This document shows positions 2,274-63,827 of a stretch of 64,000 bases of DNA, one piece after another; positions within the stretch are counted from its first letter, which is position 1, and each line of letters starts with the position of its first letter. The notes beneath the pieces are model-generated. The model was given only the letters and a program-made list of their open reading frames with translations. It did no database searches and was not told the origin of the DNA. Where the stretch lies: sequence record PV287714.1. One strand, written 5' to 3'. The translations under genes were made by a program, and so were the position numbers. Origin of the DNA: Escherichia phage HMD-9.

Positions 2274-4093
2274 TACTGGCTCATCCATTCTTTACGAAGG
2301 TCAGCATTATCTCCCATGAGCATTTCAAAAAGCTCTTTCCAATTCTCAGGAAGTTTAACAACATCATATACTGGATTTTGAATCATCTCACGATATTCAG
2401 ATTTTTCCAAAGAGCCAAGTCCCTTAATATAACGGATGCTATGTTTAGGTAGAGCATCTTTAGCACTCTCATATTCAGCGACTGTATAAAACCATTCTTG
2501 TTTTTTACCGACCTGAGCGATGATTACAGGAGTTTTGACAAAGCGAATTCTTCCTTGTTCAAACAGTTCTGGCCAATTACTAAAAAATCCGAGCAAAGAA
2601 GGATAAATGCTTCCTAGACCATCATGGTCAGCATCGGTCATAATAGCAATATTATGATAATTCAAGTTTTCGGCTTTTTCACCAAGAACTAATCCAGTGA
2701 TTGCGCAAATATCAAACAGTTCTTTGTTTTTAAGCATATCAGCATATGACATACCCCAACTGTTGAGAACTTTACCACGCAATGGATAACCGCCATGAAG
2801 TTCTTTATCACGAACATCAATAAGATATCCAATAGCCGAATCACCCTCAGTCAAGAAAAGAGTAGTGTCAGCATCTTTACCACAAAGATTCGCTTTAATA
2901 TGTTTATGAACCTTAGCTTTAGAAACCTTTTTAGCTGCTTTAGTTTCTGCTGCTTTTTCTGCCGCCAATTTACGAGCCAAGGCAGCTTCAATAATTGGCA
3001 TTAAAATTGCTTCATTATTTAAAATAGCACGTGAAATCTTTTTAGCATCAAGCTGAATATGACTACGAATTTCACCAAATGGAGAAGTCAGACGCTCTTT
3101 AGTTTGAGAGTCAAATCGCATGTTTTTCATATCACGAACAAACATAACGATAGTCAAACATTCTTTAACACGTGCTTTAGTTACGTCAATTTTAAATTTA
3201 CGTTTGATTTGTGGAATAAGGTCTTCACAAATATCATCCATAACACAATCAATATGATGGCCACCATTCTTAGTATGAATGTTATTGACGTATGTTAATT
3301 GACGAAAACCATCCGGCGAACGACCAACCGCAATAGAACAGTTTTCTTGTTCTTGAACGATAGCATGCTCATCATATTGGCGTGCATATTTCTTAAAATT
3401 ACCCTGAACCTTTTTACCATTAAAGGTAAATTGAATATCAGGATAAACTACTGCAAGTGTCTGGAGACGATCCAGTGTAATGTCAAGATAAACTTGAGAC
3501 AGCTCATTAGTTTCAAATGACATAAAATCAGGAATGAAAGTAACGCGAGTTCCTTTCCATTTTCCAGGAATATCTTCCCACGATTTATTTTCCATGCCGT
3601 TTGAACAACGAACTACAATATTATTTTGACCGTCGCCAGTTTCACCGACAAACATCACAGAAAAAATGTTAGTTAAACTAGAGCCAACACCGTTCATACC
3701 GCCAGTGACGCGTTCTTTGTCATCACCGAAGTTACCACCTGCTTTTGGAATAGTCCAGGCAGCAACAGGACCAGGAATTTCTTCACCGGTAGGTGTTTTA
3801 ACCATCGCCTGTGGAATACCACGACCGTTATCTTCAACTGTTACTTGATTGTTTTTGATAGTAACATTAATTTTATTTGCGAATTTAAACTTAGTACGAA
3901 TACCTTCATCTACTGAGTTATCGATAATTTCATCAATAAGCTTAACAAGACCAGGTACATACTGAACACTTTCCCATTTACCAAACAGAAAGCGCTCATG
4001 CATTTCATTAGCAGAAGAACCAATGTACATGCCGCTACGCTTTTTGATATGTTCAATATCGCTCAGAATTTTAATTTCATTCTTAATCATCAC
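2273..4093 (-). CDS. 39: DNA topoisomerase II large subunit gp39, unsplit 606-aa form (GyrB-like ATPase plus the part that is gene 60 in T4)
   Basis: 606-aa track ORF; N-terminus MMIKNEIKILSDIEHIKKRSGMYIGS and EDNGRGIP GyrB motifs; continuous through the region split by gene 60 in T4. Confidence 0.9.
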   Translation of the reverse strand: MMIKNEIKILSDIEHIKKRSGMYIGSSANEMHERFLFGKWESVQYVPGLVKLIDEIIDNSVDEGIRTKFKFANKINVTIKNNQVTVEDNGRGIPQAMVKTPTGEEIPGPVAAWTIPKAGGNFGDDKERVTGGMNGVGSSLTNIFSVMFVGETGDGQNNIVVRCSNGMENKSWEDIPGKWKGTRVTFIPDFMSFETNELSQVYLDITLDRLQTLAVVYPDIQFTFNGKKVQGNFKKYARQYDEHAIVQEQENCSIAVGRSPDGFRQLTYVNNIHTKNGGHHIDCVMDDICEDLIPQIKRKFKIDVTKARVKECLTIVMFVRDMKNMRFDSQTKERLTSPFGEIRSHIQLDAKKISRAILNNEAILMPIIEAALARKLAAEKAAETKAAKKVSKAKVHKHIKANLCGKDADTTLFLTEGDSAIGYLIDVRDKELHGGYPLRGKVLNSWGMSYADMLKNKELFDICAITGLVLGEKAENLNYHNIAIMTDADHDGLGSIYPSLLGFFSNWPELFEQGRIRFVKTPVIIAQVGKKQEWFYTVAEYESAKDALPKHSIRYIKGLGSLEKSEYREMIQNPVYDVVKLPENWKELFEMLMGDNADLRKEWMSQ

Positions 4094-5612: not shown

Positions 5613-5702
5613 TACAATTTCCTCATTAATTGAACATTGGAGCGATGCGTTTCAGAAGAGTATCAACACCTTTAGCGAATTTCCATTTTATTCTCCAAGT
5701 TG

Positions 5703-5745
5703 TTTTCTGTATCAGTAGTTGATATTGATATAGTACCATAATCAA
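5703..5745 (-). repeat. 13-bp perfect inverted repeat forming a leader stem-loop (PeSL-like element)
   Basis: atcagtagttgat at 5703-5715 and atcaactactgat at 5733-5745; shares gtagttgat core with elements at 24231, 49900, 51337, 63781. Confidence 0.6.
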
Positions 5746-5773
5746 CTACTGATGTATATAGTTTTATGAAAAA
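5745..5773 (-). promoter_or_regulatory. early promoter variant (GTTTAA -35, TATACA -10)
   Basis: Reverse complement GTTTAAattttttcataaaactaTATACA immediately upstream of the inverted repeat. Confidence 0.45.
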
Positions 5774-5782
5774 ATTTAAACT

Positions 5783-6271: not shown

Positions 6272-6347
6272 AGTTATCTCTCACTTGTTAAAAAGATTTT
6301 ATACTCCACAGGACCATTATACTCTGGTCCCAAGAGTTTGTAAACTA

Positions 6348-6889: not shown

Positions 6890-7390
6890 TTATCTCATTT
6901 CAACAAAATCTATGAGTTCAGCATGCGATTTGCGGAACATTACTTGGTGCCCGCCAATGATAACTTCATCTTCAGGAACTTCGTATACAGCGAGATAAAA
7001 TCCTTTAGAAGATAATTCTTCCCGCTCTTCTCGTGTGAACCATCTCATCATATCATATTCACTAGCGAAAGCAAAATGATAAAGAGCTATAAACCATCCT
7101 GGAATATGATATTCTACTCCAACATAATCTTTCTTGAACTTAGTATTAATTACTATATTAGCGTTTTTAACTAATAGTTTATCTTCGTGTGGTAAAGGAA
7201 TTCTTTTATTATTATCGCTATGATGCATAAAATTAGGTCTATCATAACCTACGTGTAATAACCACTCTTCGCTCCATGAATCTATTATACTCCTGTACGG
7301 CGTTATTTGAACACAAAGATTTCGACGTATTGTTATAGCATCTTCATAATTAAGAATACTAAAAGATGATTCAACACGATAAATTTTCAT
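6890..7390 (-). CDS. hypothetical early protein, 166 aa
   Basis: Track ORF 6890-7429 trimmed to ATG at 7388-7390 (GAGGA SD); the longer start lies inside the promoter. Confidence 0.55.
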   Translation of the reverse strand: MKIYRVESSFSILNYEDAITIRRNLCVQITPYRSIIDSWSEEWLLHVGYDRPNFMHHSDNNKRIPLPHEDKLLVKNANIVINTKFKKDYVGVEYHIPGWFIALYHFAFASEYDMMRWFTREEREELSSKGFYLAVYEVPEDEVIIGGHQVMFRKSHAELIDFVEMR

Positions 7391-7417
7391 TTTATTATCC
7401 TCAGTAGCTATGGTGTT

Positions 7418-7447
7418 ATAATACCACAACTAACCGAGGAAGTAAAC
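7418..7447 (-). promoter_or_regulatory. T4-type early promoter
   Basis: Reverse complement GTTTACttcctcggttagttgtggTATTAT. Confidence 0.55.
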
Positions 7448-11732: not shown

Positions 11733-12364
11733 TCAACTACCTCAATATCATACACTTTAAATGTTCCAAACGAATCGTGTAATTTTTCTTTTGAAATAGA
11801 AGTTATTTTATACTTTCCAATTGGAATCATCCATTCTTGTTCACGCACAATCATCATTAAGTTATCAGTACGTTCTGAATCTAATCCATCAGTATCTTCA
11901 TATGTATACTTAAACTCAGTATTAGGAGAAGAAAGTATAATATCGCTGATATGGTCAGAGTAATTAAAAGCTTTATCAGTTTTTAAGCGAAGTACTATTT
12001 CAGTGAAATATTCAGCATAAGAAAAAGAACACGCTGTATGCAAACTAGTAGTAAATGAATCTACTCTGTTCGTTGAAAACACTTCTCCAACTTGTAAATC
12101 TTTAATGAGTTCTTTTGTCGATTTTGATATACCACGATATAGCTGATAAGGCGATTTAGTTAAATGCTTTTTAACGATTTTATTCAACTGCCGATGAAGA
12201 GCTTCATTCTTTTTGGCTTCCATACATTGCCAAAGAACTGACTGCTCAAAGTCAGTAAATTTTTCACAGACTTTTTTATACATATCATATTGAAAATCGA
12301 CACTTTCAGCTTTTATAGATAACTGTTCAACATCTGCAAGATTAATAATCATGATAGCCTCCAT
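11729..12364 (-). CDS. modB: ADP-ribosyltransferase ModB
   Basis: 211-aa track ORF, paralogous to ModA, 4-nt overlap. Confidence 0.8.
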   Translation of the reverse strand: MEAIMIINLADVEQLSIKAESVDFQYDMYKKVCEKFTDFEQSVLWQCMEAKKNEALHRQLNKIVKKHLTKSPYQLYRGISKSTKELIKDLQVGEVFSTNRVDSFTTSLHTACSFSYAEYFTEIVLRLKTDKAFNYSDHISDIILSSPNTEFKYTYEDTDGLDSERTDNLMMIVREQEWMIPIGKYKITSISKEKLHDSFGTFKVYDIEVVE

Positions 12365-12378
12365 ATACTTCAGAAGCT

Positions 12379-12408
12379 ATCATATCATTGTTAGGAAGGA
12401 AAGTAAAC
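12379..12408 (-). promoter_or_regulatory. T4-type early promoter
   Basis: Reverse complement GTTTACtttccttcctaacaatgaTATGAT. Confidence 0.55.
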
Positions 12409-14899: not shown

Positions 14900-15415
14900 T
14901 TAATACCCATTATCTTGACGTTCAAAATTATGTTTATTTTTCAAATAATAAAGTTTAAAGATTTCTTCCGCATTCATTCCAAGACCAGCAAACATATTTA
15001 ATACGAAATGAAATATATCAACAAGCTCAAATTTAATTTCGAGCTGATCTTCTGGGGACATTTCATCAATGCGTTTTTCTTGCGCTTCAATATAACGCGC
15101 TTTCCATTTTTTCCAAACTGCCGATGCGTCTTTTTCACCACGTGACATTTCACCAAGAGAAGTCAGAAGTTCACGGAATTCATCATCAATACAGTCTTTT
15201 TGTTCACGCATCCAAGAAACAACATCACCGGCAGTTTCTAATTTATCTGGATGATAGCAGTATTCGCGATCATTTGCTAAACGAACCTGCAGAGATTTCT
15301 GCATATCAAGCATAACCTGCAGCGGGTCTTTTTCATCACCGAGAATATTCCAGTATTCATTTTGAGCTTTATCAGCGCCTTCGATCAGTTGACTACATTC
15401 GTTAAAGTATGCCAT
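14900..15415 (-). CDS. 56: dCTP pyrophosphatase gp56 (MazG-like)
   Basis: Track ORF trimmed to internal ATG (MAYFNECSQL...) giving 171 aa as in T4; GAAAGGAA SD. Confidence 0.9.
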   Translation of the reverse strand: MAYFNECSQLIEGADKAQNEYWNILGDEKDPLQVMLDMQKSLQVRLANDREYCYHPDKLETAGDVVSWMREQKDCIDDEFRELLTSLGEMSRGEKDASAVWKKWKARYIEAQEKRIDEMSPEDQLEIKFELVDIFHFVLNMFAGLGMNAEEIFKLYYLKNKHNFERQDNGY

Positions 15416-15449
15416 TATTTTTCCTTTCAATTCATGGGTTAGTAGATTA

Positions 15450-15476
15450 ATTATACAATAAATATATAAAGCAATA
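15450..15476 (-). promoter_or_regulatory. MotA-dependent middle promoter for gene 56
   Basis: Minus strand TTGCTTTA MotA box, 11 bp, TATAAT. Confidence 0.55.
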
Positions 15477-15486
15477 AGGAGGACAT

Positions 15487-15687
15487 ATGGTACAAAAATT
15501 AATGGCACTTGTTAATGCCATCAAAGGTAATAAAAAACGTATAGCTTTTACTATTTCTGCTATGATAGGAATTTTACTCTGGAATTTTGTTTTATCGCCA
15601 ATTGCTATTGCTCATGGCGTTAATATTCCAGTAATTACTCTTGATACATTCGTAGATTTAGCATTTGCTTTAGTTGGGTTAATTTAA
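15487..15687 (+). CDS. plus-strand small membrane protein (two predicted TM helices), 66 aa
   Basis: Only intergenic plus-strand ORF; AAGGAGG SD 4 nt before ATG; exactly fills gap between 56 and 61. Confidence 0.4.
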   Translation: MVQKLMALVNAIKGNKKRIAFTISAMIGILLWNFVLSPIAIAHGVNIPVITLDTFVDLAFALVGLI

Positions 15688-16712
15688 ATCTTAGCATATT
15701 TAGATAACCGCATTTTAGCCATCAACCCCTGAGCAATATTATTTCTCATATATTCCATAATTTGTTCAGGGGTTGCACCTTCCTTTCTAATCATATCATT
15801 AACATCTTTTGATTTCCAGGGAGATTTATCCCAAAACATAACCCTTTCTCCTGCATCAACTAATTTAGTCATTCGTTTAATAGTGTCAGGGTGACGAGGT
15901 TCATTATCTAAGACCCACACTCGTCTATCTTTAAATGGAACAACTTCTAGGTCTAATTGACCACCCGTAATAGCTATACCATTTTCAATAAAAAGTGAAT
16001 CTATAGGTCCTTCTAGAACATATACATCACCATCTTTAACTCGTTCAACGCCATATATTTTTGTTGCCTCAGGATAAGCTTTGATGGTGATATATTTTTG
16101 AGGAGCATCTTTCTTTAATGCACGTCCTTGAAAAGACTCAGCTTTTCCATTAGCATTATAAATTGGAATAACAAGACGAGGCTCAGGTATTTCCTTTTTG
16201 TATGTTCCTGGTGCTATGCTATTAACTAATTTAGGCCATTCGGTTGTAAACCAAAGATATTTCCATTTGTCCTTTGGAATACAACGAGCTTTTACGTATT
16301 TTATAATTGGATGGTCTTCCGTCAGTTTATCTAATCTAATGCATGACGGAAGAGATTTAATTATTTTCTTCTCAGGTTGTTTAGGAAATTCTTTAGGTTT
16401 TTCTACTGGACGACTTTTACCTTTTTCTTTTCTTATTTCAAAGATATACTCACGATATAAATCAGGTTCAAACTCCTTTAAATATATTCCGATTGGTGCA
16501 TGATAGTTGCAGTTATAACAATGAATATTTCCTTCATTATTATCGCCATAATACCATCCACGGGCTTTATTTTGGTCGGTTTTTGAATCTCCACAAACAG
16601 GGCATCTAAACCGCAATTTAAAAGTTGAACTATTATTTACTTGTGTGAATTTAGGTAAATGAGCTAATGCACGGTATGCAAACTCATTATCAATCCAAGG
16701 TATTGATGACAT
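15684..16712 (-). CDS. 61: DNA primase gp61
   Basis: 342-aa track ORF; zinc ribbon Cys37/Cys40 (RCPVCGDS) and HCYNC; matches T4 gp61. Confidence 0.95.
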   Translation of the reverse strand: MSSIPWIDNEFAYRALAHLPKFTQVNNSSTFKLRFRCPVCGDSKTDQNKARGWYYGDNNEGNIHCYNCNYHAPIGIYLKEFEPDLYREYIFEIRKEKGKSRPVEKPKEFPKQPEKKIIKSLPSCIRLDKLTEDHPIIKYVKARCIPKDKWKYLWFTTEWPKLVNSIAPGTYKKEIPEPRLVIPIYNANGKAESFQGRALKKDAPQKYITIKAYPEATKIYGVERVKDGDVYVLEGPIDSLFIENGIAITGGQLDLEVVPFKDRRVWVLDNEPRHPDTIKRMTKLVDAGERVMFWDKSPWKSKDVNDMIRKEGATPEQIMEYMRNNIAQGLMAKMRLSKYAKI

Positions 16713-16714: not shown

Positions 16715-16879
16715 TTACTCTTCTTTTTCTTTAGATTCCTCTTTTTTCTTTTTAGGAATCTGTTCAGGACCTTTATTTACTACAGCGCCTGACGTTGTTC
16801 CAGTAGAGATATTTTCAGGATTACCGCCTGAATCTCCAGCGACCATATCTTCTTTAATAAATTCTTTATATGTTTTCAT
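16715..16879 (-). CDS. small protein with capsid-targeting-sequence-like N-terminus, 54 aa
   Basis: ORF below track cutoff: MKTYKEFIKEDMVAG...; GAGG SD; stop 2 nt before gene 61 ATG. Confidence 0.45.
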   Translation of the reverse strand: MKTYKEFIKEDMVAGDSGGNPENISTGTTSGAVVNKGPEQIPKKKKEESKEKEE

Positions 16880-16880
16880 A

Positions 16881-17492
16881 TTAACCTCTATTCATAAAAG
16901 CATTAAAAATTTGGTCATCAATAGACTGTTTTTCTGATGGTAATTCATATCCACATATTACAATTTTGTGATCAATATCAAAATACACAGAAGCAATATG
17001 ATTAATGATGTTTTCAGTAAAGTCTAAATCAACATCAATATCTTTTTGACCACAGCCCAAAGGATAAATAATGCGAGTAATTCGATTATCTTTAACAAAG
17101 ATTCCACCGACATACTCTGTGTTGCGTTTAAAGTCTACACGGCGACGTAATGAAAAATATTCAGGCTCTTTATGAGCTCGGCTCATAGGACACAACGAGT
17201 AACTAGAATAAGAGATGTCAAATCCTACGCCTTCAATATGAGCCAAAGTATCATGATTAAACCAATTATAATCGTACGCCAAATCCATTAGATTATAATA
17301 TGTAAAAGGCACCGGATTAACATCATTAGTCACAAGCATGTAATTAGCAACTGCTATAATTTCATTGTTTTTGACGAATACAAACCGCGATTGATGTGAA
17401 TGACCTGGACCCGCGTTTTCACGATTAATGATATAACACTGGGCACCTTTATATTTGTATGTATCTTTGCACTTGTGCATTTGGTAGAGCAT
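16881..17492 (-). CDS. hypothetical protein (61.1/61.2 region)
   Basis: 203-aa track ORF between spackle and primase. Confidence 0.6.
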   Translation of the reverse strand: MLYQMHKCKDTYKYKGAQCYIINRENAGPGHSHQSRFVFVKNNEIIAVANYMLVTNDVNPVPFTYYNLMDLAYDYNWFNHDTLAHIEGVGFDISYSSYSLCPMSRAHKEPEYFSLRRRVDFKRNTEYVGGIFVKDNRITRIIYPLGCGQKDIDVDLDFTENIINHIASVYFDIDHKIVICGYELPSEKQSIDDQIFNAFMNRG

Positions 17493-17785
17493 TATTCACC
17501 TACCACTTCAGCGATGATATTTTTATTATTAAAGTTTTTATCGCAATATAGAACATAATTATACTGCATTACACCACCAGACTTAAGCTGTTTTTGCACT
17601 TCAGCTTTCATTTCAGGACGATCACGCTCAACGATATTCATAATATCCGCTTCAATTTGAGTTTCAACTTCAGTCTGATCTGCAGTCATAGACCATTCAC
17701 ACAAATCTGTGTCATAACCCGCCATAGCAGGCTGAGCAGCACAAGAAGATAAAGCAAAAATTGCAGCAAAGATAAATTTTTTCAT
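17492..17785 (-). CDS. sp: Spackle periplasmic protein
   Basis: 97-aa track ORF with signal peptide; size and position of T4 sp (61.3). Confidence 0.75.
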   Translation of the reverse strand: MKKFIFAAIFALSSCAAQPAMAGYDTDLCEWSMTADQTEVETQIEADIMNIVERDRPEMKAEVQKQLKSGGVMQYNYVLYCDKNFNNKNIIAEVVGE

Positions 17786-23427: not shown

Positions 23428-23577
23428 TCAATTGATACATTCATATTTAACTTGTAACAGTAATAAACCCCAACCTAAAATAATAGTTGGAATCATAAGA
23501 GGAACCGTTACACTATAGTATATACTTATTATAATCATCAAGATTAAAAGCAATGCTGCTATAATTTTGCTTTTCAT
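23428..23577 (-). CDS. small hydrophobic peptide, 49 aa
   Basis: ORF below track cutoff; ATG overlaps imm stop (ATGA); single predicted TM helix. Confidence 0.3.
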   Translation of the reverse strand: MKSKIIAALLLILMIIISIYYSVTVPLMIPTIILGWGLLLLQVKYECIN

Positions 23578-23825
23578 TCCTTCTCTCTGATGATAATTAC
23601 CTGATTTGGCTGCGCAGACTTTTTAGTTTCACCTGCAATTGACCAAATAAATGTAATAAACCAACCAATAATTGACCAGTTAAACAGTAAAGATGTAAAA
23701 AAGATTCCTACTGTCGATTTTGACCCACGCATCAAGGCGATGAACCATGGAAGCATGTATATAATAATAGCCAACACGCCTGAAACTAAAACCATAAAAA
23801 TTGAACCTGCTACTAAAGTTTCCAT
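23574..23825 (-). CDS. imm: superinfection immunity protein Imm
   Basis: 83-aa track ORF, two TM helices; matches T4 Imm. Confidence 0.85.
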   Translation of the reverse strand: METLVAGSIFMVLVSGVLAIIIYMLPWFIALMRGSKSTVGIFFTSLLFNWSIIGWFITFIWSIAGETKKSAQPNQVIIIREKE

Positions 23826-23832
23826 GTTTTCC

Positions 23833-24213
23833 TCACTTAGTCAAATTTTTTACACATGAATTATAAGAATTCACTACATACTCCATCGGAGCATTTTTAC
23901 CAGTACGCCACTGGTAATTATTAGCCCAATTTGCCCAAAGTTCTGCACAGTAGTTTTCAATTTTTTCTTCGCGTGTAATTACATCCGAATTACGATATGC
24001 TTGAGCAGATTCATCTGGACGAATAGCTTCGTCAAAATTCGCCTGCATTTGTTCTACTGTCTGTTTTGGAGCTTCTTTATAACACTTGACATTAGGATTA
24101 TAAAATTTGCTTGAACAGTTTACAATTTTTCCTACATCAGACTGATTTACTACCGGTCCTTGAGCTACACAACCAGCAAGACCTAATGCAATAACCAAAA
24201 TAGCGATTTTCAT
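23833..24213 (-). CDS. predicted lipoprotein (imm.1-like)
   Basis: Track ORF trimmed to MKIAILVIALGLAGC (signal peptide and lipobox), 126 aa; longer start lies in promoter element. Confidence 0.6.
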   Translation of the reverse strand: MKIAILVIALGLAGCVAQGPVVNQSDVGKIVNCSSKFYNPNVKCYKEAPKQTVEQMQANFDEAIRPDESAQAYRNSDVITREEKIENYCAELWANWANNYQWRTGKNAPMEYVVNSYNSCVKNLTK

Positions 24214-24230
24214 TTCATTCTCCAAATCCG

Positions 24231-24280
24231 TATCAGTAGTTGATAGTTGTATAGTACCACAGAGGAACGGTCTTGTAAAC
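24231..24280 (-). promoter_or_regulatory. PeSL-type early promoter cassette
   Basis: tatcagtagttgatagttgtatagtaccacagaggaacggtcttgtaaac; about 45 bp nearly identical to copy at 49900-49944. Confidence 0.6.
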
Positions 24281-24368
24281 AGTTTTGTGAAAAAATTTTT
24301 AATGAATTCAAAGGGCCCAGAATCATCTATTTTTCCTAAGTATAGATTTATATTACTTGTATGAAAAA

Positions 24369-24384
24369 GGGACCTGGAGGTCCC
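24369..24384 (-). terminator. rho-independent terminator downstream of gene 43
   Basis: gggacc-tgga-ggtccc hairpin, U run on minus strand. Confidence 0.55.
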
Positions 24385-24397
24385 TAGATTTATTCTA

Positions 24398-37694: not shown

Positions 37695-37906
37695 ACATTC
37701 ATCAACTTAGCCGCTTCAAGAGCTGCATCTAGTGAATCAAATTGGTCAACGTATTCAATCAATTCGCCATAATTAGCGTATAACCACCATTGGCTAAATT
37801 CATACTCAAGGATGAATCCATTTCCTTCAATTTGAGTTAAACCAATGCCATTTGTATTTACTTCGTATCCGGCAAGACGCAAATCATTGATAAGAGATTC
37901 ATTCAT
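37691..37906 (-). CDS. hypothetical small protein
   Basis: 71-aa track ORF. Confidence 0.5.
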   Translation of the reverse strand: MNESLINDLRLAGYEVNTNGIGLTQIEGNGFILEYEFSQWWLYANYGELIEYVDQFDSLDAALEAAKLMNV

Positions 37907-37908
37907 AA

Positions 37909-38235
37909 TTATGCCTTAGTAATTTTCAGATCAGCAAATTTTTTCTTGCGTTGATTTTTCATACGACGAATAGTTTTATCAGAAATTTCATGCTTTTGAT
38001 AAGCTTTAGATTCTACGCCAAAAGCTTTAACATCAAATTCTGACAAGATATATTGAACCAACAATTCACGGACAGTATTGCGTCCAATTTTCTGATCATT
38101 CTGTTTCATCGTCTGATGAAGCTCTTTTTCCCATTTATCCAAAATTTGAGGAGTTACAATATCGCCTTTTTCTAGCAGAGAAACTACTTTATCATATGCG
38201 TAAGAATTGATAGCGTTTTTAATTTGAATAGTCAT
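37909..38235 (-). CDS. hypothetical protein
   Basis: 108-aa track ORF. Confidence 0.5.
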   Translation of the reverse strand: MTIQIKNAINSYAYDKVVSLLEKGDIVTPQILDKWEKELHQTMKQNDQKIGRNTVRELLVQYILSEFDVKAFGVESKAYQKHEISDKTIRRMKNQRKKKFADLKITKA

Positions 38236-38273
38236 ACATTATCCTCAATTGCATTAAAATTTTATTATCCAAA

Positions 38274-38289
38274 AAGGGCCGAAGCCCTT
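38274..38289 (-). terminator. UUCG-tetraloop GC hairpin
   Basis: aagggc-cgaa-gccctt. Confidence 0.5.
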
Positions 38290-38488
38290 ATTTAAATTGT
38301 TTGGCACCCTTCCAGCCTTCGTACATCATTGCGGCTGATATTAATATTGCCCCTGAACAGCTTGAATATTTGTGATTCCAAAACCAGTTCAGAAAAACTT
38401 CGTCATCAATACCTTGGGCTATCATATTTTCAAAGAACTGACGACGAGCTTCGGCAATTCGTTGTGATAATTTAGATTCAGGATTCAT
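38288..38488 (-). CDS. hypothetical small protein
   Basis: 66-aa track ORF. Confidence 0.45.
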   Translation of the reverse strand: MNPESKLSQRIAEARRQFFENMIAQGIDDEVFLNWFWNHKYSSCSGAILISAAMMYEGWKGAKQFK

Positions 38489-38620
38489 TTAAATTTTCCA
38501 GTTACCATTTTCATCAATGAATTTAATCCAGTCATTTACTGACCACTTGGTCGTATCGCCTTTTGGAGCAACATTTAAAGTGTATAATCCTTGTTTAAAA
38601 AGCATTCGTTTGATATTCAT
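38489..38620 (-). CDS. hypothetical small protein, 43 aa
   Basis: Track ORF trimmed to internal ATG with GAGGAAAAT SD. Confidence 0.35.
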   Translation of the reverse strand: MNIKRMLFKQGLYTLNVAPKGDTTKWSVNDWIKFIDENGNWKI

Positions 38621-38627
38621 ATTTTCC

Positions 38628-38921
38628 TCAGCTATAACGATAACACTCGTTTGATTTGCGCTTAGCAACTCGTTGAGAAGTATTGTAATCAAAATCGTCA
38701 TCAATGTAAACTGATTTTTTCAACTTTCTTACTTCACTGCGTAATTGACGATTTAGCTCATCTTTAACTTCTGAATCAATGCCTTTCATTCTACGCCATT
38801 TATCTGAGCGAAAAATGTTTTCAACCATATCTTTATGACTTACACCATCAGGAGCTTTACGCTTTCCGAAATAGTCATAATCACGTACTTTTAAATCTTT
38901 ACGACGATACGTTTTACCCAT
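38628..38921 (-). CDS. hypothetical basic protein, 97 aa
   Basis: Track ORF trimmed to internal ATG (MGKTYRRKDLK) with AAGGAAA SD. Confidence 0.45.
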   Translation of the reverse strand: MGKTYRRKDLKVRDYDYFGKRKAPDGVSHKDMVENIFRSDKWRRMKGIDSEVKDELNRQLRSEVRKLKKSVYIDDDFDYNTSQRVAKRKSNECYRYS

Positions 38922-42478: not shown

Positions 42479-42948
42479 TTTAAACTCTTTCTAAGCTGCT
42501 TCTTAAATGAAGCTATTAATTGTGTTTTGGTGTCAGATTCATTATATTCAAATCCTCTTTGAAGCATCTCAGCCATCATTTCCTCTTTTCCTAAACGAGA
42601 AAATTCCTTTGATTTATCTCCAACAAAGTTAGGGTGAATATTATTTTGGGTGTAATCGGATTTTAAATAAGTAAGTAAATTTTCTAACCATTCAAGATAA
42701 TCAACACCTTGTCCCTTTAAGCCAGAACGATTAAATTTATGCTTCATTTGACCTTCTGCAGCATTACAGAGATTACATAGCAACCCACGTACCTTTCCTG
42801 CTTTTGGTCCATTTAATTCATGGTCATGGTCAAGGTGATTAGCTTGAACATCAGGATTTAATTCTCGTTGGCAAATTAAGCATTTACCGTTTTGTGCATT
42901 ATAAAATTTTTGTTTTTCTTCTTTGTATAATTTGCCAGTCAATAACAT
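42475..42948 (-). CDS. 49: endonuclease VII gp49 (Holliday junction resolvase)
   Basis: 157-aa track ORF; HLDHDHELNG H-N-H-like motif; matches T4 gp49. Confidence 0.93.
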   Translation of the reverse strand: MLLTGKLYKEEKQKFYNAQNGKCLICQRELNPDVQANHLDHDHELNGPKAGKVRGLLCNLCNAAEGQMKHKFNRSGLKGQGVDYLEWLENLLTYLKSDYTQNNIHPNFVGDKSKEFSRLGKEEMMAEMLQRGFEYNESDTKTQLIASFKKQLRKSLK

Positions 42949-42991
42949 AATAAAACCCTTACCTTAAATAGATAAGGGTATTTATTATTTT

Positions 42992-43168
42992 TCAAGTATT
43001 GTAAAACATTCGATGCAATCGCTTATATTGCCGAATCATCTTTTTAGTAGGACGAGAATAAGTTCCTACACAAGTGGTCATATTAGGGTCTGTAGAATTT
43101 CCTTTAATAAAAAGTTTCCAAACCTTACCACCATTTAACTTTTCAGTATAAATCAATTCAGTTTTCAT
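42992..43168 (-). CDS. hypothetical small protein, 58 aa
   Basis: ORF below track cutoff; ATG overlaps stop of upstream gene (TAATG). Confidence 0.35.
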   Translation of the reverse strand: MKTELIYTEKLNGGKVWKLFIKGNSTDPNMTTCVGTYSRPTKKMIRQYKRLHRMFYNT

Positions 43169-43632
43169 TAAAATGCTCGGTCAGAAAAAGAAATTTGAGT
43201 TTCAAGCCATTCAATATATTCTGCCGCAGCTTGCATCAGGTTACCTTCATAACCATCGTTATTTTCTTGCGCAGCTAATTTAGCTAATGCATATGAAATG
43301 CGTTCACCCTGAAAAGCGGCTTTAGGTTTATGAATAGCTTGATCAACTCGTTCTACGACTTCTTCAATTTCGCCGTTTTCTACTGATTCAGTATTCCATA
43401 GGCACCAATATGTAATTGGCTTATCATAGATGTTAATAACCTTTCCGTCAGAAAGTTCAATTTCAATAATTCCAGTATCAGGTTCTATATCATCTTCACA
43501 TTCTTTCGCAAGTTCACGAACTTTAAAGACAGTACCTGCACTAAGTTCTGGCCAGTAATTACACAACCCTTTATCAGCACGATTAATTCTAAACCACTTA
43601 TCTACTGTAATCATGTCCCATCTCCATATCAA
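43168..43632 (-). CDS. hypothetical protein (pin/49.x region)
   Basis: 154-aa track ORF. Confidence 0.55.
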   Translation of the reverse strand: MIWRWDMITVDKWFRINRADKGLCNYWPELSAGTVFKVRELAKECEDDIEPDTGIIEIELSDGKVINIYDKPITYWCLWNTESVENGEIEEVVERVDQAIHKPKAAFQGERISYALAKLAAQENNDGYEGNLMQAAAEYIEWLETQISFSDRAF

Positions 43633-44698: not shown

Positions 44699-44932
44699 CT
44701 AATTGAACCTGTTCAGTACCGCATTTTGGACAGTTCGGAACATTCTTAGAAGACCTTTCGCGACGTTCAACCATAGCCATAATAGCATCCAAGCAGGAGG
44801 TTTAAAGTCTAGATCGTCACAACCATGAATCTTTCCGCGCATTTCTAGATCGTCTTCTTCACCAGCCATAATAATTTTAATTAGACTGGAATTACTTGAA
44901 GCTGCAATATCTTCTAATAAACGCTTTTTCAT
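44699..44932 (-). CDS. hypothetical small protein
   Basis: 77-aa track ORF. Confidence 0.45.
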   Translation of the reverse strand: MKKRLLEDIAASSNSSLIKIIMAGEEDDLEMRGKIHGCDDLDFKPPAWMLLWLWLNVAKGLLRMFRTVQNAVLNRFN

Positions 44933-45855
44933 TTCAGTACCTCAATAGCATCACGTAAACCATTTGCTTTTGCATTAAGAGCTTTTAACAATTTGGTATG
45001 TTCGGCAATCTGGGCTTCAACTTCAATCAAACGGGCACTGAGATATTCGCGTTCTTCTTTCATAGTATCATTCCCATGATTAGGCTTTGGCGTAGGTTTA
45101 AATTTACTAGGGTCCTTTAACTTAATAACAACTTTAGTTTCAAACAGTGAAAGACCATAATTCGTATTATCGTCAAAGGATTCAACTACGTCCATTTTAG
45201 ACAATAACGTACGAAGATTATAAGTCAAAGAACGAATCGTTTTATTATGTTTATTAGCTTCACGCGGTTTCATATATGGAAGATTTTTATATATTTCATG
45301 CGGAGCACAAACAATAATTGACAATTCAAATGGTCCATTCTGTGATGATGGAATAAATTTAGCCGTAACCCAATCTTTTACATTTACATTAATAGTACGG
45401 TCATCGCCATGACAAAACAGTCTACGAGAATGCTTAAAAAGCATATTCACATTATTATTAAATTCATGTGAAAACTCACTAGCAAATTTTTCTTTACTAT
45501 TTTTAGAAAACCATTCTTCTAAATAAGTTCTTTTCACGTCATTAATAATATTAAATGTAACAACATTAGCATTTGATACATTAGTCTCAATGTAGCTTGG
45601 ATACATAAATTTTTTAACATTATTAACAGCTATTACAGAAGATAGTAATCGGGAACGTTTGAACCACTCTAGCAAAGAACCAAGAGAATGTGAATATGCA
45701 TTTTGTGTATCTTTACAAATATGGTTTTCCCATCCAATATAGTCTAAAAAATCACGAAGAATATTATTGATTACTGCTCTATGTCCTATCTGATAATTAC
45801 GATGTTTAGTAATAAGACTGTCAAAATAATCAATATAATGTTTACGAGTTTTCAT
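44929..45855 (-). CDS. hypothetical protein with C-terminal coiled coil; paralogue family member 1 of 4
   Basis: 308-aa track ORF; N-term MKTRKHY; C-terminal heptad-like LLKALNAKANGLRDAIEVLK. Confidence 0.6.
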   Translation of the reverse strand: MKTRKHYIDYFDSLITKHRNYQIGHRAVINNILRDFLDYIGWENHICKDTQNAYSHSLGSLLEWFKRSRLLSSVIAVNNVKKFMYPSYIETNVSNANVVTFNIINDVKRTYLEEWFSKNSKEKFASEFSHEFNNNVNMLFKHSRRLFCHGDDRTINVNVKDWVTAKFIPSSQNGPFELSIIVCAPHEIYKNLPYMKPREANKHNKTIRSLTYNLRTLLSKMDVVESFDDNTNYGLSLFETKVVIKLKDPSKFKPTPKPNHGNDTMKEEREYLSARLIEVEAQIAEHTKLLKALNAKANGLRDAIEVLK

Positions 45856-46937: not shown

Positions 46938-46967
46938 ATTATACCACATCCTTGTGGCAAAGTAAAC
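46938..46967 (-). promoter_or_regulatory. T4-type early promoter, near-identical duplicate of 2244-2273
   Basis: Reverse complement GTTTACtttgccacaaggatgtggTATAAT. Confidence 0.6.
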
Positions 46968-47995
46968 TAGTTCAGTGCATTTAGTGCATTGTTCAGTTTA
47001 GAACGTTGCTTTGTCAGATTTTGAACCCTTGACTGAGCTTGTTCTAACACCTTTTCAGCTTCTAGCACTTCATTGGTCGCTTTAACGAGTTCATCATCTA
47101 CTGCCTTAAGAGACTTCTCAATCGCGTCAGCGTGCCATTTTTCTACAGGTTTAAAATTTGAATTTTCAGTAGGAAGAAAACTCACTTTATTAAGTTTACA
47201 TGCATCTATATTGCTTGAGCTATACATCCAAAATTTAGGATCGTTTGATGAGTAATTGGATAAATTTAAATTTAAGTTATCTTGCACTTCCTGCTTTTTC
47301 TCTTGCGTGACTTCGTCCTTTCTCAAAAAATCGTATTTAAATGAAACGATCATATCAAGTTCATACGTTGTTGTATGTTCCCAATTTCGCTCAAAACGAG
47401 GTAAAATCTTAGATTGAACAGCAGCAACAACATCCATATACTTAAATGCTTCTGTCAGCTGTGATTTAAGACATTCACAAATTGAAAGAGAATTTTTTGT
47501 ATTAGGTTTAAAGCTAATTCGTGCAGTTCTATTATTTTCTTTTAATGGTCTTACTTCCATCTGAAGAGTATAACCATCAAATTTCAGGTTCTTTAAGTTA
47601 ATGTCAGAACCTTTTAATCGACTAGCCGTCGACAAAATTTGCTTTAATTGTCTACGGAACAGAGCAATAAATCTCCATTCAATACGATAATGATTTGGAT
47701 TGAAAAATCCAGATGATAAATCGACCTTACTTTGACCAACGCCTTGAACAAATAGAGGATTTTTATAATCAATAGTTTTACAGAAATCGGTGAGCTGCTC
47801 ACGAGCCGTCATTTGCGTAATATACCCCGCTTTACTAAAATGACGTAACCATTCACTGCTATTCGTATACTTAAAGTGATGAATAACACGATTAACTTTA
47901 TCAGGGTCTAAATTATTTTCACACAAAAATGTCATAACATTACGAGTATAGCTGGCATTACGAACCATATCTTCAATTTGAGAACGAGTTTTCAT
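46967..47995 (-). CDS. hypothetical protein with C-terminal coiled coil; paralogue family member 3 of 4
   Basis: 342-aa track ORF; N-term MKTRSQI; C-term coiled coil. Confidence 0.6.
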   Translation of the reverse strand: MKTRSQIEDMVRNASYTRNVMTFLCENNLDPDKVNRVIHHFKYTNSSEWLRHFSKAGYITQMTAREQLTDFCKTIDYKNPLFVQGVGQSKVDLSSGFFNPNHYRIEWRFIALFRRQLKQILSTASRLKGSDINLKNLKFDGYTLQMEVRPLKENNRTARISFKPNTKNSLSICECLKSQLTEAFKYMDVVAAVQSKILPRFERNWEHTTTYELDMIVSFKYDFLRKDEVTQEKKQEVQDNLNLNLSNYSSNDPKFWMYSSSNIDACKLNKVSFLPTENSNFKPVEKWHADAIEKSLKAVDDELVKATNEVLEAEKVLEQAQSRVQNLTKQRSKLNNALNALN

Positions 47996-49358: not shown

Positions 49359-49886
49359 TTATGCGAGTACCGTCTTTAACCGTTCTTCAAACTTCCGAAG
49401 AGTATTTTGGCGTTCAGCTCTTTGCTTTTTGTAAGTTTCAATACGCTCTGAAATGAGAGTGTATCGTTCATTTACTGATTCTTTCATAAAATCAGGAATT
49501 TCACGAGAAGCTTTAATCTCATCAAATTTATCAATAACAGCTTGCTCTTCAGCAATTAAGTTATCATACATTAAAATATCTTTCTCGATGAACTCAATAT
49601 CTTCTTGAGTTACACGAGATAATTTAGATGCTTTATCCTTTTTGTACTGTTCGTTAGTATCACGAGACCAGTGTAATGTACGATTTTTATTCGTATTCTT
49701 GTAAATTTCTACAATACCAATTTCATCAATAATAACGATCCAATTCCAACGGGATTTGTAAATTTGTCCTCCATCAACAGTGATTTCACCTCCGATTGAG
49801 ATGTCGTTAAAGAACTTACTCTGTGCTTCAGATTTAAATTTACCATCGTTGTAATTTACCAAGTTGAAAATATCTTTAGCGTTCAT
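49359..49886 (-). CDS. hypothetical protein with C-terminal coiled coil
   Basis: 175-aa track ORF directly downstream of PeSL cassette. Confidence 0.55.
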   Translation of the reverse strand: MNAKDIFNLVNYNDGKFKSEAQSKFFNDISIGGEITVDGGQIYKSRWNWIVIIDEIGIVEIYKNTNKNRTLHWSRDTNEQYKKDKASKLSRVTQEDIEFIEKDILMYDNLIAEEQAVIDKFDEIKASREIPDFMKESVNERYTLISERIETYKKQRAERQNTLRKFEERLKTVLA

Positions 49887-49899
49887 TTTGTGTTCCTCC

Positions 49900-49944
49900 G
49901 TAGTTGATAGTTGTATAGTACCACAGAGGAACAGTCTTGTAAAC
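49900..49944 (-). promoter_or_regulatory. PeSL-type early promoter cassette
   Basis: gtagttgatagttgtatagtaccacagaggaacagtcttgtaaac; one mismatch over about 45 bp vs copy at 24231. Confidence 0.6.
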
Positions 49945-50350: not shown

Positions 50351-51331
50351 TTATTTCAGAAGAGTAACCTCAGCAATTTCTTCCCAACCGTTTTTGTCGG
50401 TCATAATAAAGTCAGCAAGATAAAGAGCAGTACGCAGTGAAACATTGCGTAAACGATTAACATTAACTTTCATCCATGATAATGCTTTATAAGTTTCTTC
50501 ACTAGAAAGACCGCGCTTTTGCATCATGTCAGTTGAAAGAATAACATCTTCAACCCTGACCATAATTTCTTCATTAGTGTGAACACCCAAATCCAAATAA
50601 ACTGAGCGGGACACTAATGCTTGTAAGTGTGGAGCAAGTTTAGTACCGCGGTCTAATTCGCGGTCAATGTCAACGTTTGTGATAAAAACAATCGTTCCTT
50701 TAAATTCAAACTCACGGTCAATGCCTTTTTCTTCTAAGTAAGAAGATGCAGTGCTCCAGCAGACTTTACGGGTCTCTCCAGTGTCCAGAGCAGCTTTTAG
50801 AAGATTAAGAATGTCCATATCAGAGAAAACATCCACATCATCAATCAAAAGGACAGAATTCTCTTCACGATTATTCCAAAGCTGTTCATAAAGACCAATA
50901 CCAGAGATTTTACCATTAATGCTTTTATATTCAATGTATCCAATATCATTTGCTTTATTTAAAGCTTTATCTAAAGAATACGTTTTACCAATACCTGCTG
51001 CGCCAGAGATAATTAATGAACGAATATTTCCATTAATAATACCGTTCGTCATCATTCCCATAACATTAAATCTTTTATTAATGCGGGTTTTCATATCTTC
51101 ATATGATTCTTTAACTTCTTCAACTTTTACACCATCATATGAAATATCTGATTTGTAAACCCAAACACCGCGACGTTTACCGTCAATTTCAACAAAAACT
51201 TTACCATCTCCTTGTGCATCTACCGGAGCATTATCTGGGAACCATTCGCCTAAGAGCTCAAAAGTTCCAGAGATTTCTTTACCGAAGTAGATACCCTTAT
51301 TGATAGTTACAGTTTTCATTTTATTCTCCAA
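50351..51331 (-). CDS. P-loop NTPase (AAA-like ATPase)
   Basis: 326-aa track ORF; Walker A GAAGIGKT and Walker B LLIDDVD. Confidence 0.6.
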   Translation of the reverse strand: MENKMKTVTINKGIYFGKEISGTFELLGEWFPDNAPVDAQGDGKVFVEIDGKRRGVWVYKSDISYDGVKVEEVKESYEDMKTRINKRFNVMGMMTNGIINGNIRSLIISGAAGIGKTYSLDKALNKANDIGYIEYKSINGKISGIGLYEQLWNNREENSVLLIDDVDVFSDMDILNLLKAALDTGETRKVCWSTASSYLEEKGIDREFEFKGTIVFITNVDIDRELDRGTKLAPHLQALVSRSVYLDLGVHTNEEIMVRVEDVILSTDMMQKRGLSSEETYKALSWMKVNVNRLRNVSLRTALYLADFIMTDKNGWEEIAEVTLLK

Positions 51332-51336
51332 ATCTG

Positions 51337-51386
51337 TATCAGTAGTTGATAGTTGTATAGTACCATAAAGCTTTATGCTTGTAAAC
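51337..51386 (-). promoter_or_regulatory. PeSL-type early promoter cassette
   Basis: tatcagtagttgatagttgtatagtacca...cttgtaaac; first 29 bp identical to copy at 24231. Confidence 0.6.
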
Positions 51387-51411
51387 CGTTTTGTGAAAAA
51401 ATTTTTGAAAT

Positions 51412-51439
51412 AAAAAAGGGGACCTCTAGGGCCCCCTTT
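51412..51439 (-). terminator. rho-independent terminator
   Basis: ggggacc-tcta-gggcccc hairpin flanked by A run and T run. Confidence 0.55.
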
Positions 51440-51447
51440 GTGTTGAT

Positions 51448-51933
51448 TTATTCCATTTCTACTATATGCATGTTCTTTTTGCTATCAAAATATATGTTTT
51501 TAACTATTAACTCAGAATTAATTGGCAGTAAAAACTCTCTTTCATAATCTACCATACAAAGGTTATCATAAAGCTTGTTAAGCTTATCATCGTCAATTTG
51601 ACCAGATTCTTCAATTGCGATTAAATTTTCTAAAATGTCAATCATAGCAGTCGAATAGTCGAAAACGTTTGCATTTTTTAACACTACTAAAACATTAGTC
51701 ATATAGCGTTCTGCCGCAAACGTTTCAGCTATATGAGACTCACTGCTAAAGGAAGTTATTCTTTTAAATTTGATTCTCCTATTAACTTCAAACTTATAAG
51801 ATAGCACTTCCTCTATTGTAAGTCCTCTAAAAAGTGTGTCTTTAATCTCAAGTTTGTCTTTAATGTAATCATTAACACGCTTATGATTAAAATCATTAAT
51901 TTTGTTGCCAAGGCATTGCATTAAAATATGCAT
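51448..51933 (-). CDS. hypothetical protein
   Basis: 161-aa track ORF. Confidence 0.5.
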   Translation of the reverse strand: MHILMQCLGNKINDFNHKRVNDYIKDKLEIKDTLFRGLTIEEVLSYKFEVNRRIKFKRITSFSSESHIAETFAAERYMTNVLVVLKNANVFDYSTAMIDILENLIAIEESGQIDDDKLNKLYDNLCMVDYEREFLLPINSELIVKNIYFDSKKNMHIVEME

Positions 51934-51979
51934 TGTATTCTCCTCAATTTTTAAAGAGCAATTAATTAACTACACATAT

Positions 51980-52009
51980 ATTATAATATGCTTTGCGGCA
52001 GAAGTAAAC
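51980..52009 (-). promoter_or_regulatory. T4-type early promoter
   Basis: Reverse complement GTTTACttctgccgcaaagcata TTATAAT. Confidence 0.5.
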
Positions 52010-52038
52010 AACTTTGTGACGTCATTTTAAACAAAAAA

Positions 52039-56306: not shown

Positions 56307-56519
56307 TCATTTTTGCCCTGTATTTACTTTATGCCGATGCACGGCCTTAACTTTATCAAGGTATTTTTCAAAATTTCGCAATCTAGTATAGTCTGCCGGA
56401 GATTGGTTGAGTGATACTTCTCGACGCAAAGCTGAAATGATATTTCCAACTTCCCTACGAATTTCATCTAATTGAAGAACAGTAAGATTGCGAAGTTGCT
56501 TTTCAGTTAATTGTAGCAT
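56307..56519 (-). CDS. hypothetical small protein
   Basis: 70-aa track ORF. Confidence 0.45.
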
Positions 56520-56561
56520 ATATACCCCTTTAGTTAGATAAACCTATTTATAACTTTTGCA

Positions 56562-57143: not shown

Positions 57144-57152
57144 ATCACCTTC

Positions 57153-59254: not shown

Positions 59255-59716
59255 TCATTGAGTTTTAATTACTGCTTTAGAAGCCTTTCCTGGTAAACGA
59301 CGACTGTTGATAATTGCCATCCTACACTGAAGTGACGGGTCTTTGAACTTCGCATTAGGTTTACAAACTGTAAATCCAAGCCAAAGATTTCCATCTGTGA
59401 TTTCTAAACGCCCAGGACGATATTCAACCCCATCAATAAAATCTTCGTCAATATCAGGGCGTGGAGGCATACTCAGGAATTCATTAACTTCTAAAACATG
59501 GTCTTTTATTTTGTGGAATAATTCAAAAACATATGTCTCATCAATCTCCCGCTGAATTGCACGATCAAGAAGATGCTGAGAATATTTTAGATGAAACGAT
59601 GAGACTCCTGCTGCTTTTGATGCCTCACGAATCTCATTGTTAATTTGACGAAACTCCGACTCAAAGTGACGACGGAGCTTATTTCGACGGATAAAAACTT
59701 CTGTGTTGATAGTCAT
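59255..59716 (-). CDS. regB: endoribonuclease RegB
   Basis: 153-aa track ORF, matches T4 RegB length and N-terminus. Confidence 0.9.
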   Translation of the reverse strand: MTINTEVFIRRNKLRRHFESEFRQINNEIREASKAAGVSSFHLKYSQHLLDRAIQREIDETYVFELFHKIKDHVLEVNEFLSMPPRPDIDEDFIDGVEYRPGRLEITDGNLWLGFTVCKPNAKFKDPSLQCRMAIINSRRLPGKASKAVIKTQ

Positions 59717-59743
59717 GTTATTCTCCTCTTAACTGATAGAAAA

Positions 59744-59773
59744 ATTATACTACAGTCAAGAGGAAAAGTAAAC
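59744..59773 (-). promoter_or_regulatory. T4-type early promoter for regB
   Basis: Reverse complement GTTTACttttcctcttgactgtagTATAAT. Confidence 0.6.
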
Positions 59774-62545: not shown

Positions 62546-62598
62546 ACGGATTCCTTAAAGGTAAATATTTTAATTGGTATGTTCAAGTAACTGTAGAT

Positions 62599-63026: not shown

Positions 63027-63056
63027 TTTTGTTTCCTTGTTTGTTTTGATAGAGTA

Positions 63057-63356: not shown

Positions 63357-63770
63357 TTAGTAAATTGATTTACCATAGTATTTGTACCAAGTAGGACGTT
63401 GAGCAATTTTTTCGTCTAAGCGTGCTTGACTTATCGCAATGGACGCTTCGGACGGGACATAATTATTACGAAATTCGGCAGGGATGTCAGAAATATCCTG
63501 AACAGTCGTGTCCTTGATTTTGAAACCACGTTTCAAGCATTCAGCGATTAGCTCGATTTGACGTAAACGTAAAAATTCGAGTTTGTCGTAAAAGAATGTT
63601 ACGTGTCCTGTGCCTAAGATAAATGTTGGAGAGATTTTAAAATCCTTTACGCGTTTACCGTTTTTAACATGTTTACGGACTGCACCAAATACGCGTGGTA
63701 ATTCACGATACTCAGCCATAAGATGTTGGTCGGTCAGTTCAGAAACAAGTGTTAAATTGATACGAGTCAT
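63357..63770 (-). CDS. denV: endonuclease V (pyrimidine dimer DNA glycosylase) DenV
   Basis: Track ORF trimmed to [12 protein letters not shown]; about 90 percent identical to T4 endo V from memory. Confidence 0.93.
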
Positions 63771-63780
63771 AATTTCCTCC

Positions 63781-63827
63781 AAGTAGTTGATGAATGTATA
63801 GTATCAAAACCCTTGGAGGAAGTAAAC
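63781..63827 (-). promoter_or_regulatory. early promoter with PeSL-like leader upstream of denV
   Basis: Reverse complement GTTTACttcctccaagggttttgaTACTAT followed by leader catcaactactt. Confidence 0.55.

Follow-up and report, generated by a model that had tools for sequence, protein, structure and literature searches.

Repeated early-promoter cassettes in a T4-type Escherichia phage and predicted hairpins that enclose some of them

A short element recurs at five places in a 64,000-nucleotide stretch of the Escherichia phage HMD-9 genome (PV287714.1), here called the window, and this raises the question of whether the copies are related cassettes or strong promoters that merely look alike, and what such cassettes might do for the genes behind them. 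The window belongs to a Tequatrovirus, with 97-99% identity to T4-type phages; in a 3-kb sample, identity was 99.4% to Escherichia phage 236Ecol005PP and ~97% to T4.

Anatomy of the five copies

A preliminary description of the window had placed copies of the element at 24231-24280, 49900-49944 and 51337-51386, with variants at 5700-5775 and 63781-63827, and all five were confirmed by reading the sequence. The 24-nt sequence GTAGTTGATAGTTGTATAGTACCA was matched perfectly at 24236, 49900 and 51342 and with three mismatches at 5715, compared to 0.00 matches expected by chance in shuffled sequence. A degenerate form of the core, TACTATAnnnnnATCAACTAC on the minus strand, was matched perfectly at all five sites, 63783-63803 included, where 0.07 matches were expected. 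The copies beginning at 24231 and 49900 had been said to differ at one position, and the comparison of 24236-24280 with 49900-49944 indeed gave a single g/a difference. A repeat finder returned a 58-nt family (24207-24264 and 51313-51370, 93% identical) and a 29-nt family covering the -35 and UP region (24272-24300 and 51378-51406, 97% identical). Since identity extends well past both hexamers, the finding that had been named as speaking against a repeated element, likeness in the -35 and -10 hexamers alone, was not what the copies presented.

The genes of the window are oriented on the minus strand and, read on that strand, the order of parts is an AT-rich region, GTTTAC(A/T), a 17-nt spacer, TGn-TACTAT, a 5-nt discriminator, ATCAACTAC, a short leader with GGAG, and ATG. 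TTTAC(A/T)-N17-TACTAT with TG before the -10 was found in four of the five copies, the cef-leader copy having TATACA as its -35, and GGAG or GGAGG lies 6-9 nt upstream of the ATG in all five, the ATG of the cef-leader copy being the start of a mini-ORF. On sequence grounds, the five sites were thus confirmed as predicted early sigma-70 promoters before the cef leader, imm.1, nrdC.8, nrdC.10 and denV. The starts of the downstream genes, mapped to T4, are 24213 (imm.1), 49886 (nrdC.8), 51319 (nrdC.10) and 63770 (denV), with the mini-ORF before cef starting at 5686. Host sigma-70 RNA polymerase would recognize the AT-rich UP region, GTTTAC, the 17-nt spacer and TGn-TACTAT, and transcription would start at about the A of ATCAACTAC, judging by sigma-70 geometry alone. 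The product would be a short leader carrying the GGAG SD sequence and the ATG of a small early gene or, at cef, of the cef leader.

The imm.1 cassette (24211..24305, minus strand, as are all features below) consists of an AT-rich UP region at 24305-24280, a -35 TTTACA at 24279-24274, TGn and a -10 TACTAT at 24256-24251, the core at 24256-24236, an SD sequence GGAG at 24223-24220 and the ATG at 24213-24211. In the nrdC.10 cassette (51317..51406), the UP region is at 51406-51386, the -35 at 51385-51380, the -10 at 51362-51357, the core at 51362-51342, the SD sequence at 51329-51326 and the ATG at 51319-51317, and the spacer holds an AT palindrome, CATAAAGCTTTATG, at 51377-51364. The cassette upstream of cef (5684..5779) has a -35-like TATACA at 5758-5753, the -10 at 5735-5730, the core at 5735-5715 and the SD sequence at 5696-5693. 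The AT-rich sequence AAAAATTTTTTCA(C/T)AAAAC lies upstream of these three copies, and the end of an upstream ORF takes its position in the other two. One of these is the nrdC.8 cassette (49884..49943), with its -35 at 49943-49938, -10 at 49920-49915, core at 49920-49900, SD sequence GGAGG at 49899-49895 and ATG at 49886-49884; the nrdC.9 stop codon ends 3 nt from this -35, and no terminator is present there. The other is the denV cassette (63768..63826), with a -35 TTTACT at 63826-63821, the -10 at 63803-63798, the core at 63803-63783, an SD sequence GGAGG at 63780-63776 and the ATG at 63770-63768; here, the stop of the upstream ORF ends 2 nt from the -35.

Two minor features of the cassettes, a likeness of ATCAACTACTGA to an IHF site and a 4-bp hairpin at the 5′ terminus (AUCA...UGAU), were considered but set aside, being too weak and lacking conservation at nrdC.8. 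A scan of the window against Rfam at gathering thresholds gave no match. Other repeats in the window include a second early-promoter pair, at 2244-2275 and 46938-46969 upstream of rIIA.1 and nrdC.4, which is 97% identical and has the palindrome CCACAAGGATGTGG in its spacer, and short, near-identical terminator-like hairpins, AAGGGCCGAAGCCCTT, at 4142, 27152, 29322, 34633 and 38272, downstream of replication genes.

Relation to PeSLs, exchange between copies and module boundaries

PeSLs are repeated composites of an AT-rich region, an early promoter, a stem-loop and the SD sequence and ATG of the next gene, which concentrate in variable regions and have been implicated in the insertion, deletion and exchange of small ORFs (PMC2839356; PMC4122927). 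The promoter consensus given for T4/PST PeSLs is TTTACW-N17-TAYWAT (Comeau, Arbiol & Krisch 2014, PMC4122927). With the early promoter, AT-rich region, SD sequence with ATG and stem-loop all found, the elements match the T4/PST description, in support of the proposal that they are PeSL-like cassettes. The five sites are quite probably members of a single subfamily of T4-type early promoter cassettes, of the PeSL kind described by the Krisch group, with exchange between copies and dual insulation.

The T4 copies precede the same genes as the window copies, and the whole T4 genome contains 11 family members, all 11 on the early strand, before the cef leader, sp, imm.1, nrdC.8, nrdC.10, denV, e.8, trna.4, motA, ndd.4 and ndd.6. 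In GenBank, T4 record U76612.1 carries annotated -35/-10 signals before nrdC.8 and nrdC.10 ('early promoter 54.4'), indicating that the cassettes are known T4 early promoters, and the same record annotates a terminator just upstream of the nrdC.10 -35. The cassettes are, then, already known as T4 early promoters of the PeSL kind, and the flagged repeats are a rediscovery of annotated promoters and of a published concept, a new phage example rather than new biology. They do offer a clean illustration of promoter cassettes exchanging segments, one of them bordering a polymorphic insertion site where the resident small genes vary from phage to phage.

The cassettes have the phage group and the anatomy in common with the T4/PST PeSLs, which are repeated in variable regions next to indels (PMC4122927), and the T4 members before ndd.4 and ndd.6 flank ndd.4/.5, the exchange example of Comeau 2014 (PMC4122927). 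The stem-loop differs: in that paper it lies just upstream of the promoter (AGNA-loop-TCNT), whereas in the window two copies have a G+C-rich upstream terminator and two have a promoter-enclosing hairpin that pairs the SD sequence. The PeSLs of RB49 and phi1 are likewise composite promoter and stem-loop cassettes (Arbiol et al. 2010, PMC2839356), with the stem-loop often between the -35 and -10 or over the -10; they mediate small-ORF insertion, deletion and replacement, and mini-circles have been demonstrated for them (PMC2839356). Unlike the window cassettes, the RB49 promoters are near-perfect TTGACA/TATAAT with G-run/C-run terminator stems, and the authors regard the T-even elements as analogues, not homologues, of the RB49 PeSLs (PMC2839356). 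As a separate observation, in jumbo T4-related phages (loci L147, L151, L154 and L155, on contigs of 345-378 kb), the denV promoter is TTGACT..TATAAT and its -35 is contained in a G+C-rich terminator hairpin with a T-run, GGGTTGAC-ttcg-GTCAGCCC, which is an RB49-type PeSL layout and not an SD hairpin.

Several copies are composed of segments found separately elsewhere. In the window, the imm.1 and nrdC.10 copies have in common the UP region and the entire leader as far as ATGAAAA, and the 17-nt imm.1 spacer is of the nrdC.8 type, matching that of T4 nrdC.8 exactly and that of the window nrdC.8 copy at all but one base; the T4 imm.1 spacer is of the e.8 type. Variants of the discriminator are common to paralogues within a genome, CAACT in T4 and GACCT in four copies of contig 641509422, and the orthologous nrdC.8 copies differ between T4 and that contig. 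The cef-leader copy has its leader, SD sequence and ATGGA(A/T)AATT in common with the T4 e.8 copy. Its ATG (5686-5684) starts a mini-ORF of four codons, MEIR*, the T4 counterpart of which (NC_000866, ~6557) has 11 codons, MENSLKVLILF*, and this ATG is 75 nt ahead of the real cef start at 5612. The first codons of the mini-ORF match the e.8 cassette, so that it looks like a vestigial start brought along by cassette duplication. A frameshift in cef was entertained and proved wrong, the cassette ATG being that of the mini-ORF upstream of the real cef start.

Mosaic copies and discriminators shared within a genome are the pattern that gene conversion would be expected to leave. Homologous recombination or gene conversion between copies would keep them alike and occasionally move them, and recombination would yield mosaics and turn cassettes into the boundaries of gene-sized insertions. 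Convergence of strong T4 early promoters on one optimum, with no common descent, exchange or mobility, is a very unlikely source of the likeness. Although the extended consensus of T4 early promoters goes beyond the hexamers, according to a review, and other early promoters of the window also begin CTATCA-like, the copies are identical at non-consensus positions that vary among the 19 promoters of the 64-kb window, and ATCAACTAC is present at just five of the 19. Convergence is also at odds with the match of the imm.1 spacer to nrdC.8 over all 17 nt, with the leader tail that imm.1 and nrdC.10 share through ATGAAAA, with ATGGA(A/T)AATT in both the cef-leader and e.8 copies and the vestigial mini-ORF at cef and, generally, with mosaic breakpoints and copies containing the first codons of another gene. 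The conservation of ATCAACTAC may reflect selection on promoter escape, selection on the mRNA 5′ end or shared descent.

Flanking gene content was compared by aligning the window to T4. The cef-leader, imm.1 and nrdC.8 copies lie within collinear blocks at the same positions as in T4, while the nrdC.10 copy adjoins a 583-bp insertion absent from T4, and the denV cassette is found across the internal-protein genes from its T4 position. The cassettes had been described as mobile and as marking module boundaries; because two copies (nrdC.10 and denV) are found at differences from T4, the boundary part of that claim holds for two of the five. The three copies at T4-conserved positions indicate that mobility is rare on this time scale, and it is the mosaicism that argues for mobility.

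At nrdC.10, a self-contained module (51415..52037) comprises a promoter with its -35 at 52008-52003, a 161-aa ORF at 51933-51448 and its own terminator at 51439-51415, with the nrdC.11 terminator (52057-52038) on one side and the nrdC.10 cassette on the other. The ORF product resembles phage RNA polymerase ADP-ribosylases in their C-terminal, catalytic part (PHROG 832, E = 6.5e-24). The ends of the module fall in repeated terminator T-run/-35-UP sequence, and both ends align to a single 39-bp stretch of T4. The nrdC.11/nrdC.10 junction is polymorphic among 536 phage records, being empty in most, as in T4, and holding the 161-aa ORF in 35; other records have a different insert of ~480 bp, and one of these annotates a DUF4031 protein under the match.

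For the denV cassette, which sits at shifted internal-protein genes, there is a likeness to the T-even internal-protein loci, where repeats based on T4 early promoters flank shuffled small genes, as far as that work (Repoila et al. 1994) is related in PMC2839356. The internal-protein locus of the window (61932-63806) is rearranged relative to T4, with denV upstream of the internal-protein-like genes rather than downstream, and several of these genes have a common N-terminal coding repeat, MKTY(K/Q)EFIAE (62514-62545, 62995-63026 and 63319-63350). Elsewhere, the window is without the gene 60/mobA region, soc/segF, dam, segA, mobB, mobC and the nrdD intron with I-TevII, and other sequence replaces mobD; the gaps relative to T4 are at T4 2793-3911, 15336-16270, 16825-17725, 23555-24250, 37817-38679, 42916-43518, 44814-45850 and 56449-57258. 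The location of these gaps indicates that most large indels relative to T4 are related to homing endonucleases and not to cassettes.

Hairpins around early promoters

The stem-loop component, which the preliminary description named but did not show, was found in two forms, as a terminator upstream of the promoter or as a hairpin enclosing it. Terminator-like stem-loops precede imm.1 and nrdC.10. The first follows gene 43 (24368..24385; 7 bp, 5 of them GC, then a T-run) and is 88 nt upstream of the imm.1 -35, and the second (51415..51439; 10 bp, 6 GC, then a T-run) is 29 nt upstream of the nrdC.10 -35 and doubles as the 3′ end of the inserted module. Promoter-enclosing hairpins were found at nrdC.8, denV and the cef leader.

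At nrdC.8 and denV, which have no upstream terminator, the spacer between the -35 and -10 is complementary to the SD region. The nrdC.8 hairpin pairs a 5′ arm in the spacer, TGTTCCTCTGTGGT at 49933-49920, with a 3′ arm over the SD sequence, ACTACGGAGGAACA at 49904-49891, and the arms at denV are TTCCTCCAAG at 63821-63812 and CTTGGAGGAA at 63783-63774. RNA spanning the promoter was predicted to fold at -22.7 kcal/mol for nrdC.8 and -19.8 kcal/mol for denV, with all five SD positions paired in both. This pairing was not found at imm.1, nrdC.10 or the cef leader. The imm.1 spacer, although it is that of T4 nrdC.8, has no complementary partner in the imm.1 leader and is thus an orphan arm. At the cef leader, a perfect 13-bp inverted repeat (ATCAGTAGTTGAT at 5753-5741 and ATCAACTACTGAT at 5723-5711) surrounds the -10 and leaves the SD sequence unpaired; this hairpin (5711-5753; dG -20.2 kcal/mol, z = -5.3) is also present in T4. 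A hairpin likewise surrounds the -10 of the motB promoter (~6316-6344).

Hairpins of the nrdC.8 and denV kind were also found at other early promoters of the window. The regB promoter (59714..59772), which is outside the ATCAACTAC family, has the same spacer/SD design (dG -23.4 kcal/mol), as does the motB.2 promoter (7388..7446; dG -23.7 kcal/mol), and at the modB promoter (12350..12407; dG -17.3 kcal/mol) the 5′ arm of the SD-sequestering hairpin overlaps the -10. By geometry, the 5′ arm precedes the predicted +1, lying within the spacer or overlapping the -10, and the predicted folding energies are -17 to -24 kcal/mol for read-through RNA compared to 0 to -2 kcal/mol for the transcripts predicted from the embedded promoters. 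The loops are large, at 15-28 nt. Of 16 promoter-bearing gene starts, 5 had a strong SD hairpin, compared with none of 46 other starts (Fisher p = 0.0007). None of the five promoters concerned (nrdC.8, denV, regB, modB and motB.2) has an upstream terminator, and in all six terminator-preceded promoters the hairpin is absent or weak; among promoters without an upstream terminator, a strong SD hairpin is present in just 5 of 12.

Conservation was examined in denV loci collected without reference to the motif. In T4-sized phages, the whole SD sequence is paired with an upstream partner in all 23 distinct denV upstream regions (z = -1.8 to -6.8), and the 5′ arm always falls within the spacer, on the -10 or immediately downstream of it. 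The arms themselves differ between lineages, and 13 arm pairs were chosen as distinct representatives. Orthologues of nrdC.8 present three hairpin designs, and those of regB also three. When MAFFT and RNAalifold were applied to 17 denV upstream regions, no consensus structure was obtained; the denV arms are not positionally homologous, which makes column-wise covariation inapplicable, and per-sequence folding and a comparison of cognate with chimeric arms were used instead. With halves swapped between 17 representatives, cognate arms had a mean of -19.0 kcal/mol compared to -10.9 kcal/mol for chimeric arms, and none of 20000 permutations reached the observed mean. Full pairing of the SD sequence persisted in 68% of chimeras, pyrimidine-rich CUCC spacers being a generic feature. 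Hairpins with a 5′ arm near the -10 were under-scored by a duplex test that used a fixed split point, which cut through them, and that test was rejected. The results from folding and arm swapping point to selection on the hairpin, which has been kept with changed arm sequences in the denV, nrdC.8 and regB orthologues of T4-like phages.

Translational insulation and competing readings

As a computational result, the placing of early promoters within hairpins is a modest, well-supported lead. The cassettes would be insulated by one of two routes, either a terminator stem-loop upstream (imm.1 and nrdC.10) or, where the end of an upstream ORF adjoins the -35 (nrdC.8 and denV), a spacer complementary to the SD region. 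In the second case, polymerase coming from upstream would transcribe through the promoter, and the read-through RNA would fold with its SD sequence hidden, which would block translation. RNA from the embedded promoter would be without the 5′ arm and hence translated, and such transcripts would be the sole translated ones. RegB, an endoribonuclease that cleaves early SD sequences at GGAG unless secondary structure prevents it, would also have access to them.

Hairpins that sequester the ribosome-binding site and contain an internal promoter are known from T4 e, soc, 49, I-TevI and segB and from Aeh1 mobE. In these cases, long transcripts pair the SD sequence or AUG and internal-promoter transcripts are without the 5′ arm, and the window hairpins are predicted to follow the same logic. 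The cases treated in reviews from 2010 are late genes with late promoters, and one review calls this a common feature; in the window, by contrast, the internal promoters are early sigma-70 promoters and the genes (denV, nrdC.8, regB, modB and motB.2) are early. The predicted effect is, unlike that in the late-gene systems, that a gene would be translated solely from early transcripts of its own. Literature searches on the mapping of T4 start sites and on a hairpin at the denV promoter returned nothing relevant, and sequence papers from the 1980s may already note early-promoter hairpins. We tentatively suggest, as a possibility somewhat short of an even chance, that T4-like phages have a general and undescribed mirror image of lysozyme (gene e) control at many ORF-abutting early promoters, by which genes would be translated from their own immediate-early transcripts alone and be silent on middle and late read-through RNA. 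If so, the hairpin would be a translational insulator for gene cassettes, an alternative to a terminator, and could account for the cleavage of the same GGAG sites by RegB in early transcripts and its absence in later ones. Should SD-masking hairpins around early promoters prove routine, many small early genes would depend strictly on their own promoters for expression, and transcript maps alone would mispredict the timing of those proteins.

It is unlikely, by comparison, that the hairpin serves in longer transcripts mainly to shield GGAG from RegB or to stabilize upstream mRNA at its 3′ end, with control of translation secondary. The specificity of RegB for GGAG in early SD sequences and its sensitivity to secondary structure are what such shielding would need, but a masked SD sequence is equally unable to bind ribosomes, so that protection from RegB and translational silencing are coupled. 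Distinctly unlikely is the reading proposed for RB49/phi1, in which stem-loops embedded in promoters are attenuators or terminators of upstream transcription and not translational blocks. The stem-loop of an RB49 PeSL cut the expression of a downstream lacZ as much as a strong terminator did (PMC2839356), and the -35 at the denV loci of jumbo phages is overlapped by a real terminator. However, that lacZ assay does not separate termination from masking of the SD sequence, and what comes after the 3′ arms in question is A-rich sequence and the ATG rather than a U-run. These arms also always coincide with the SD sequence, which termination does not need.

That the repeats act on DNA, as operators for a factor that shuts off early promoters or as cruciforms, is highly improbable, for while the repeats bracket the -10 and the mechanism of early-promoter shut-off is, in the literature, not understood, the 3′ arm is always over the SD sequence, loops of 15-28 nt are unfavourable for cruciforms, the mismatches are G-U in the sense orientation, and arm sequences that are wholly different between promoters and between orthologues leave no common operator. 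Masking of the SD sequence in RNA agrees better with the strand preference of the folds, as the sense strand was more stable by at least 5 kcal/mol in 12 of 30 cases and the antisense strand was never better by more than 3.3 kcal/mol, the G-U pairs that favour the sense strand pointing to RNA rather than to a DNA operator.
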